UHGV virus genome: UHGV-0072542
DNA: 17,746 nt
Reading direction: 5' to 3' (one strand)
Source: a virus
Positions 2,702 through 11,820 of this stretch are shown piece by piece (position 1 is the stretch's first letter; each line of letters starts with the position of its first letter). Made by a program: the position numbers and the translations under genes. The notes below the pieces were generated by a model that was not told the DNA's origin, made no database searches, and worked only from the letters and a program-made list of their open reading frames with translations.

Positions 2702-2902
2702 CTACTCCCCCCACAACTGAATCATTTCTCGTTTCTTCTTCTCCGGCTCCGGCATCTCCACTTCCTGCCCGGCGTCCAGAAATACCTGCTGACAGAGTCC
2801 GGGGTTGGCATCCAGCACCTTTTCGGTGACGCCCTGTGTCGTGCCGTAGTACCGGAAACAGAGCGAATCCACGGTGTCGCCTTCCAGTGCCTTCACTTTC
2901 AT
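2702..2902 (-). CDS. X: tail protein X (P2 gpX-like, LysM-like)
   Basis: MKVKALEGDTVDSLCFRYYGTTQGVTEKVLDANPGL matches the recalled P2 gpX pattern (MKTFALQGDTLDAICVRYYG...). The ATG at 2900-2902 overlaps the gpL stop as ATGA. Confidence 0.8.
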   Translation of the reverse strand: MKVKALEGDTVDSLCFRYYGTTQGVTEKVLDANPGLCQQVFLDAGQEVEMPEPEKKKREMIQLWGE

Positions 2903-3446
2903 CAGCACAGCTCCGCAAACATTCGCGGTCGTCCCAGAATGTCAGAGATGGCCCAGCTCACATCGCGCCACAAATCCGATGTCTGTATATCCAGTGCGTC
3001 CGCCCGGCGATCGCCCTTGTCCGTTGTGTCCGCATCGCGGTAACGCTCCAGAATCAGGGCACGTGTGGCGGTATAAACAGCATTGCGCCAGTGCCAGAGA
3101 TTGACGCTTTCTCCGTTAATTACGGGTGCCGGAACATCGGCCAGCGTCTGATGGCCCACCACCCGCTCGCCCGATTTGAAAGTGAATGGCCCGGCGTCTG
3201 ATGGCCGCCCGCCTGCTGTTCCTGCTGCCACGCTTCCAGTTCGCGGGTAACGTGAGCCACGGCCCCAGTGGCGGTATGCAGCAGGCGGGAGGTGGTCACG
3301 CGGCCCGGCAGTCGTACCGCCAGACGCAGCTCGCGCAGCACAATATCCGGCCAGAATGCACCTGCTGAAATGCGAGTGTCGCCATCATCGGTATCGGTGA
3401 TGTCGTCCTCTGCGGGTCCTGGTTCAGTTCTGGCAACCATACTCAT
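2902..3446 (-). pseudogene. L: head completion protein gpL, reading frame interrupted (N-terminal part in frame of 3120-3446, C-terminal part in frame of 2902-3231)
   Basis: N-part FWPDIVLRELRLAVRLP...LEAWQQEQQAGGHQT and C-part GHQTLADVPAPVINGESVNLWHW...ERYRDADTTDKGDRRADALD each align to recalled P2 gpL but lie in different frames. The junction coincides with a 13-bp direct repeat GCGTCTGATGGCC (3144-3156 and 3194-3206) spaced 50 bp apart. Removing one 50-bp period restores a continuous gpL-like ORF. Confidence 0.55.
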
Positions 3447-3461
3447 GGAGTTCACTCCTGA

Positions 3462-3533
3462 AAAAAAATCGGGCGGTGGGTGCGCGGTGTAAACGGTCAC
3501 GGAGTCAAACCGGAACACCGCGCACGCCGCCCG
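3462..3533 (-). terminator. putative intrinsic terminator between M and L (long GC-rich stem, then U8 on the minus-strand RNA)
   Basis: Inverted arms cgggcggtgggtgcgcggtg (3470-3489) and caccgcgcacgccgcccg (3516-3533) flank a 26-nt loop. On the minus strand they are followed by eight U (plus-strand AAAAAAAA at 3462-3469). Confidence 0.4.
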
Positions 3534-10544: not shown

Positions 10545-10856
10545 TTATTCGGGAAATAACGCCCGGATATTTCCGGCCATCTGACTGGTTATCTGTGCGG
10601 CTGATACTGGCTGTGACGCGGGGCGTTCTGTCCTGGTTTGTGTCACTGATAACGCCTCATCATCAGCCCATGCAGCCAGTCGGTAAGCCTCTGCCGGATT
10701 CATTTTCAGTAGTGCCAGCCCGGCCAGAAAAGCCACGCGTTGACCACTTTTGCGGGCTTCTGGTGTAAGGCTGTCCAGCCAGGCGCATGCTTCGCCTTCG
10801 TTCTTGACGGCGGCGGGCTTCAGATAGAAACTTATCCGTCTGGTTGGTGTCGTCAT
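10545..10856 (-). CDS. parR: ParR-like centromere-binding protein (type II partition)
   Basis: RRISFYLKPAAVKNEGEACAWLDSLTPEARKSGQRVAFLAGLALL resembles the recalled R1 ParR N-terminus (RTIAFKLNPDVNQTDKIVCDTLDSIPQGERSRLNRAALTAGLALY). It lies 4 nt downstream of parM. Start taken at the internal ATG at 10856. Confidence 0.65.
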   Translation of the reverse strand: MTTPTRRISFYLKPAAVKNEGEACAWLDSLTPEARKSGQRVAFLAGLALLKMNPAEAYRLAAWADDEALSVTQTRTERPASQPVSAAQITSQMAGNIRALFPE

Positions 10857-10860
10857 TGGT

Positions 10861-11820
10861 TTACTCCTTGTCCATTGCGTACAGCCCATTAACCAGAGCA
10901 AACTGTGGCACCCCGTCCGCGATGAAGGTCGCATTAACTCCGCAGGCTTCGCGGATAGCGGGTGCCACAATCTCCGCCCCGCCACCGACAACCATCACCC
11001 GCCCGTAACCCGAAAAACCCGCCAGCGCGCGGATCACGCGTTGTTTCAGTGTTTCTTCCTTTTCACGAATAACCGCCATCAGGCTGGCGTAATGCGCGTC
11101 ATTGTGGATGTGCTGGCGCAGCCAGGCTTCATCATGGCGATGTTCGATAATGGTATTGGCGATGTGGTGACTGGTACGCATACCGTTAGTGGCCATCACC
11201 GACAGTACGGCATCGGCCATCAGGGAAACGCCTACGTGTGGATCGCAAAACACCTGGCTGATACCTGCCAGTTGTCCCTGAACCTTTGCCACATCCAGCG
11301 TGGTTCCGCCTAAATCCACAATCAGCAGGGATTCAAACGGACTCATGTCAGCCAGTGCTTTAAAACCAGCCGGAATGGATTCAGGCATAACCCGTACGTT
11401 ACGGATAGTGAATGCTTTTCCGTTCTGGTACGCCACCGGGCGCATGACGTTTGCTTTTTTGCGGTTGATGTTGGCCATGTCCGGCTGTGCGTTTGTGTCG
11501 AAATATTCGCTCAGTGGCAGGGTGACAACCACATCCACTTCCTGTGGTGTGATGCCTGATTTGACCAGCGCGTGATGAATGGCAATGACATTCACATCGC
11601 TGTACTGGTATTGCGTGTCGGTCGTCTGGACAAAGCGATCGCTGACTGGATCAAAACCATAGCGCACGCCATCAAGCATGTAGTTCGCGGGCTGCGTGCC
11701 ACCGAACGGCGCAGACCATTCCGACTTGAAGCTGTTCGGGCTGATGGCGTTGCGGCGTTCGCCGTTCTCAGTCCATGCCAGCTTGATGTTGGTGGAGCCG
11801 TCATCGATACAAATTTTCAT
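10861..11820 (-). CDS. parM: ParM/StbA-like actin-like segregation ATPase
   Basis: 319 aa. IDDGSTNIKLAW, ISPNSFK, YSDVNVIAIHHAL, IRNVRVMPESIPAG, LLIVDLGGTTLDV, VMVVGGGAEI and VNGLY match the recalled plasmid R1 ParM along its whole length. ATG at 11820 with an AAGGAAAA SD. Confidence 0.85.
   Translation of the reverse strand: MKICIDDGSTNIKLAWTENGERRNAISPNSFKSEWSAPFGGTQPANYMLDGVRYGFDPVSDRFVQTTDTQYQYSDVNVIAIHHALVKSGITPQEVDVVVTLPLSEYFDTNAQPDMANINRKKANVMRPVAYQNGKAFTIRNVRVMPESIPAGFKALADMSPFESLLIVDLGGTTLDVAKVQGQLAGISQVFCDPHVGVSLMADAVLSVMATNGMRTSHHIANTIIEHRHDEAWLRQHIHNDAHYASLMAVIREKEETLKQRVIRALAGFSGYGRVMVVGGGAEIVAPAIREACGVNATFIADGVPQFALVNGLYAMDKE

Follow-up and report, generated by a model that had tools for sequence, protein, structure and literature searches.

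Gene L of P2-like phages codes for gpL, the protein that completes the head and adapts it to the tail, and it is among the six genes common to all Peduoviridae. In the DNA analysed here, a stretch of 17,746 nt that we call the window, this gene is present as two pieces in different reading frames. The question that the locus raises is whether the gene has been inactivated, whether full-length gpL is still made from it by some indirect route, or whether the interruption is not part of the phage DNA at all. A sequence-only reading had described an additional 50-bp segment in L, flanked by a 13-bp direct repeat, that splits the gene and leaves the two gpL halves in different frames, and this description was borne out by our analysis. 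We consider it probable that the locus carries a private, very recent and complex insertion mutation in L of an otherwise intact P88-like E. coli prophage (Xuanwuvirus, Peduoviridae). Most likely, L has been knocked out by an ordinary mutation of very recent date, and no new biological mechanism is involved. The features discussed below are collected in Table 1.

Table 1. Gene L, the parts of its lesion and the adjoining gene X, with positions in the window.
Feature	Position	Strand	Description
Gene L (gpL, head completion / head-to-tail adaptor)	2902-3446	-	545 nt, compared with 495 nt in relatives
N-terminal fragment ORF, 108 aa	3120-3446	-	first 84 native residues (A80G included), followed by 24 out of frame and TAA at 3120-3122
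C-terminal fragment, gene call of the public contig	2902-3159	-	85 aa from a GTG start; covers native residues 81-164
Direct repeat, copy on the side of the C-terminal half	3144-3156		GCGTCTGATGGCC on the + strand; GGCCATCAGACGC on the coding strand, encoding G-H-Q-T; adjoins native downstream coding sequence
Filler, 37 nt	3157-3193		CACCACCCGCTCGCCCGATTTGAAAGTGAATGGCCCG on the + strand; no source found
Direct repeat, second copy	3194-3206		adjoins native upstream coding sequence
Two substituted bases	3207-3208		GC on the + strand, where all relatives have AG; results in A80G
Extended imperfect direct repeat	3136-3217		32 nt (3136-3167 and 3186-3217), 78% identical, enclosing the perfect 13-mer
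Gene X (tail protein X)	2702-2902	-	ATG at 2900-2902; 1-nt overlap with the L stop at 2902-2904

The closest phages are P88 and other members of Xuanwuvirus, at about 88% DNA identity. Complete E. coli genomes contribute about 1,050 records with gene L itself, at an identity of 90-99.5%, and every one of these relatives lacks 50 of the 651 bases that the matching stretch has in the window. An alignment with intact L genes, which the sequence-only reading had proposed as a check, was made with L of E. coli Z1323HEC0010 (WP_052936259.1) and of P88. It contains one 50-column gap and is otherwise collinear. In the relatives, L is one continuous ORF, annotated as 'head completion/stabilization protein'; another name of the protein is head-to-tail adaptor Ad1. 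It lies between the gene for the terminase small subunit, M, and the tail gene X, and this position is kept in the window. Both gpL halves of the window match the profile PF05926 (Phage_GPL). When one period of the repeat (3157-3206) is deleted, a continuous ORF of gpL length is obtained, as had been predicted; its 164 aa are identical to WP_052936259.1 apart from A80G. Against PF05926, this restored ORF scores 159.8 bits (cut-off 27) and covers profile positions 1-138 of 139. By profile and by position, the restored gene is thus a member of the Phage_GPL family, and the copy in the window is a disrupted one that lacks the continuous ORF of about 164 codons.

The window is about 100% identical to three complete E. 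coli chromosomes (NZ_CP148391, NZ_CP195362 and NZ_AP040249), which it matches in two pieces. A base-by-base comparison of the 17,746 nt with NZ_CP148391 yielded one SNP at position 944 and the event in L, and nothing else. Since the window otherwise equals the three E. coli genomes but for one SNP, the lesion is much younger than any other divergence of the prophage. The insert is present in none of the approximately 1,050 E. coli records with gene L. For each of the two fragment proteins, the public records contain just one contig, NODE_133 of ENA ERZ1741949 (37,301 nt). The window begins where this metagenome contig begins and extends over 17,746 nt of it; the k-mer coverage of the contig, taken from its name, is about 20. 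The lesion is private to this contig.

Some neighbouring features of the window are recorded here for context. The SNP at 944 (G in the window, A in NZ_CP148391) lies inside a large DUF6645 / SASA-domain (sialate O-acetylesterase-like) gene, which occupies positions 1-1444 of the minus strand and is flanked by the lysis cassette and the tail genes; the contig, and hence the window, starts inside this gene. Between M and the ribosome-binding site of L, a very stable hairpin followed by U8 (3461-3533, minus strand; -48 kcal/mol, z = -5.5 against shuffles) constitutes an intrinsic-terminator-like element within the late capsid operon and outside the lesion. At about 10545-11820 on the minus strand, the RefSeq annotation of NZ_CP148391 gives genes for a ParM segregation ATPase, a small plasmid-partition/stability protein and a ClpX-type zinc-finger protein. 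This is a plasmid-like maintenance set in the early region, beside the portal gene, of an integrated P2-like prophage.

At the level of single bases, the event in L is not a clean 50-nt insertion. On the plus strand, the reference reads GGCC-AG-CCGCC and the window reads GGCC-CACCACCCGCTCGCCCGATTTGAAAGTGAATGGCCCG-GCGTCTGATGGCC-GC-CCGCC, so that 52 nt stand in place of 2 nt with a net gain of 50. Codons 80-84 of gene L are affected. Each copy of the repeat encodes GHQT in its own frame, as had been noted from the sequence. The N-terminal ORF runs ...QQAGGHQT and continues with out-of-frame residues to its stop, and the C-terminal ORF runs ...GHQTLADVP... through the native stop at 2902-2904. 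The frame of the C-terminal fragment is open beyond the GTG start of the gene call (ORF 2902-3231).

The 13-mer occurs in exactly two copies in the window, 50 nt apart from start to start, and is the only direct repeat of at least 13 nt within 100 nt in the whole window; block shuffles contained a mean of 0.045 such repeats. The similarity extends beyond the perfect core. In its flanks, 12 of 19 bases are identical when 4.8 are expected, and 0.02% of control positions do as well. If symmetric flanks of 10 + 10 bases are taken, the count is 11 of 20, which is equalled at 0.3% of control positions. Both ends of the filler resemble degraded copies of the native flanks, and its middle matches nothing. 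The location of the 13-mer inside a 32-nt repeat of 78% identity fits annealing at an imperfectly matching site.

A source for the 37-nt filler was sought in the window, in the prophage and in public sequence collections. Only chance-level matches were found in the window, whether up to 3 mismatches were allowed, k-mers were compared or Smith-Waterman alignments were used (score 24; shuffles 22.8 +/- 1.9), and the same holds for k-mers and Smith-Waterman alignments over the whole 41.7-kb prophage locus. The best match in 5,426 E. coli genomes was 24 nt in csiE (E = 6), and plasmid and phage collections again gave chance-level matches only. IMG/VR, the GTDB representative genomes and the JGI metagenome contigs were scanned with exact patterns, namely the middle of the filler and both its halves, and contained none of them. 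At the two ends of gene L, the opposite strand (minus, 2892-2901 and 3466-3475) repeats two 10-mers from the filler, TGAAAGTGAA and CGCCCGATTT. Chance alone would give about one 10-mer match of this kind, and the gapped alignment did not reach significance. The insert has no consensus sites for promoters or terminators, its structure is not unusual (z = -0.18 as RNA, -1.43 as DNA), and no Rfam family was detected in the window.

Several simple origins of the lesion were considered and rejected. A tandem duplication by strand slippage is contradicted by the repeat itself, in which only 13 nt are identical (32 nt at 78%), and by the filler, which as a whole resembles the local sequence no more closely than shuffles do. 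When the filler was treated as a noisy copy of local sequence, it scored 10, compared with 10.1 +/- 1.4 in shuffles. A segment of a diverged L gene is no better a candidate: swapped into gpL, it scored like shuffles against PF05926, and tblastn detected no such L segment in phages. The GC change that leads to A80G occurred in none of the 1,048 E. coli records (best match 39/41), which argues against a natural polymorphism acquired by recombination.

The anatomy of the lesion does not agree with a transposon footprint, nor with simple slippage. It is probably the scar of a template switch during replication or repair, in which the nascent strand would have re-annealed at the 13-nt microhomology after copying either a template not met among the sequences searched or one that was poorly copied. 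A donor of the 37-nt filler was found nowhere among those sequences. Frameshifting insertions in virion genes of prophages are of a known kind; the junction anatomy of this one is somewhat unusual. As a mutational signature, with its 13-nt microhomology, its two adjacent substitutions and 37 nt of orphan filler, the lesion is of modest curiosity.

The consequences for the protein follow from the length of the event. A gain of 50 nt is not a whole number of codons, so ribosomes exit the native frame after residue 84 and meet a stop 24 codons later. The frameshifted product keeps residues 1-84 and is without the C-terminal 80 residues of gpL. In the P2 virion, gpL is a 12-mer ring with the portal on one side and the tail terminator gpR on the other; its helices are connected by short disordered linkers, and its C-terminal region engages in a 'handshake' with the portal clip (bioRxiv 10.64898/2026.09.14.750843). 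It joins the head, and thereby finishes it, before the tail is attached (PMC7552001). As the portal-binding C-terminal half of gpL is lost, infectious particles should fail to form unless gpL comes from outside. Head completion and tail joining by this prophage copy would then depend on gpL from a co-resident P2-like phage. The main interpretation of the sequence-only reading, that a split L means a defective phage unless there is a sequencing error or L is supplied in trans, is supported in this way, with the loss of function deduced from the structural data on P2. A search by sequence returned no solved structure of a close homologue.

The overlap of the L stop with the X start has the form TGATG on the coding strand, which suggests a translational coupling that the upstream frameshift would break. 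The frameshift may also be polar on X, as termination 216 nt upstream could lower the translation of this gene. For the prophage, the private frameshift marks this copy as probably non-infectious without a helper, and its importance is local only. For the annotation of phage genes from metagenome contigs, the lesion is a reason for caution.

The most serious rival to a real mutation is an artefact. According to this explanation, the 52-nt tract is absent from the phage DNA and stems from a chimeric or error-rich molecule formed during library preparation or amplification, or from graph simplification or gap closing in an assembly of the SPAdes type. The tract does come from a single source, contig NODE_133 of ERZ1741949, and its filler is unmatched in any collection searched. 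The lesion is also odd in combining a perfect core with degraded flanks and two substituted bases, and the rest of the window is identical to finished genomes. However, de Bruijn assemblers join sequences on shared k-mers of at least 21 nt; they do not make 13-nt joins and do not invent 37 bases. The filler would then have to occur in the reads, and rare chimeric reads should be outvoted at a k-mer coverage of about 20, which is adequate. The contig is moreover indexed under two samples, which may or may not be independent of each other. An artefact is thus possible, if rather unlikely, and we rate it below a real allele, which for its part rests on one short-read metagenome assembly.

If the tract does belong to the phage DNA, gpL might still be functional. 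In one version of this idea, the true allele is an in-frame insertion of 48 or 51 nt with an error of 1-2 nt; in another, the ribosome performs a programmed -1 frameshift. The C-terminal frame is indeed open across the whole insert, and the shift needed to connect the two L frames is one of -1 (or +2). The roughly 17 extra residues would then be placed in a linker, and the site AAGHQT...PAP is plausibly a linker of the kind that connects the gpL helices. Still, no relative has any insertion at this site, and indel errors in a consensus are rare at about 20x short-read coverage. The peptide that the filler encodes in the C-terminal frame, GRPSDAGPFTFKSGERVV, is loosely similar to GHQTLADVPAPVINGESVN. 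When the inserted peptide was swapped into gpL, the PF05926 score was 124.2 bits, like that of shuffled controls (116.4-123.6 bits in seven shuffles). A slippery heptamer of the X XXY YYZ type is absent from the upstream N frame within the frame overlap, and the relatives, in which L is read in a single frame, provide no conservation of a shift. The sequence-only reading had allowed for a 51-bp in-frame insertion with a 1-bp error and for functional frameshifting. The first gained no support, as the inserted bases are in no searched sequence and the peptide is not gpL-like, and the second is not supported either, given the missing heptamer and the missing conservation. We hold it to be very improbable that gpL is functional by either route.

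Translational bypassing similar to that of T4 gene 60 would be another way around the insert. Peptidyl-tRNA would leave one of the codons GGC-CAU-CAG-ACG and re-pair with the identical codon 50 nt downstream, and full-length gpL (with A80G) would result. For comparison, we used the conserved bypass features compiled by Manning & Atkins (bioRxiv 10.1101/2022.08.31.505936). Gene L shares with T4 gene 60 the 50-nt gap and the identical take-off and landing codons, of which L has four consecutive matched pairs. A candidate for the G-rich triplet that precedes the landing codon in T4 gene 60 is a GGG 5 nt 5' of the landing GGC, inside the 'mini-SD' window of 5-7 nt. In addition, L is a phage structural gene, and without some such remedy the phage would not survive an insertion in it. 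The GGG, however, sits in GC-rich sequence (GGGCGAGCGGGUGGUG), not in AU-rich sequence, and is expected by chance in such a composition. T4 gene 60 further has a stop or hungry codon, a tetraloop stem-loop, an AU-rich 3' part of the gap, a nascent-peptide signal, a MobA element, the setting of a topoisomerase gene and conservation, and gene L is without all of these. The codons that follow the four take-off codons (CAU, CAG, ACG and CCG) are neither stop nor rare codons, and the first in-frame stop comes 24 codons past the ACG. Neither a compact take-off stem-loop nor a UUCG or GNRA hairpin is present, and the 141-nt region folds no more stably than shuffles do (z = -0.18 for its minimum free energy). 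There is no evolved nascent-peptide signal, because the upstream peptide is identical in relatives that have no insert. A homing-endonuclease cassette is not found nearby, and there is no second occurrence of the arrangement anywhere that we searched. We therefore find bypassing hard to believe.

Full-length gpL from the interrupted gene, if it were made, would span ...QQAGGHQTLADVPAP..., and the tryptic peptide of a 50-nt hop would be ELEAWQQEQQAGGHQTLADVPAPVINGESVNLWHWR. Were such a hop real, it would be the first of the gene 60 kind outside T4-like topoisomerase genes, caught at birth. The locus would be of general interest only if a 50-nt spacing of matched codons supported hopping, and the sequence offers little reason to expect this. 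That the 50-nt tract is a spontaneous bypass element which yields enough full-length gpL for the phage to survive strikes us as a very long shot.

Scarcely credible, too, and largely refuted, is the idea that a transposable element left the tract behind, as a footprint or as a miniature copy, and duplicated its 13-nt target site in doing so: there are direct repeats on both sides of a foreign tract, and target duplications of 11-13 bp do occur with IS4-family elements, but the filler has no terminal inverted repeats, no match or other copy was found in the 5,426 E. coli genomes, plasmids and phages (which hold the common IS elements) or in GTDB, IMG/VR and JGI, and the two substituted bases and the degraded similarity beyond the repeat misfit a staggered-cut duplication.

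The private frameshifting insertion that we prefer can be set beside several known systems. Prophage decay produces pseudogenes by frameshifting indels, and these likewise present as a private frameshift in an essential virion gene while the rest of the element is intact. The usual cases involve a simple slippage duplication or an indel of 1-2 nt, whereas the L lesion involves 37 nt of orphan sequence. Microhomology-mediated template-switch insertions (filler DNA) also place new sequence between short target repeats and are accompanied by nearby base changes; unlike in these, no donor was found nearby or elsewhere, so that the assignment of the L lesion to this class rests on junction anatomy only. 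The intact L of P88, of other Xuanwuvirus members and of P2-like prophages of E. coli is the same gene in the same position. In the prophage of NZ_CP148391, which encodes WP_052936259.1, the flanking DNA is identical to that of the window, the restored protein is one residue off, and the replacement of 2 nt by 52 nt is what sets the window's L apart.
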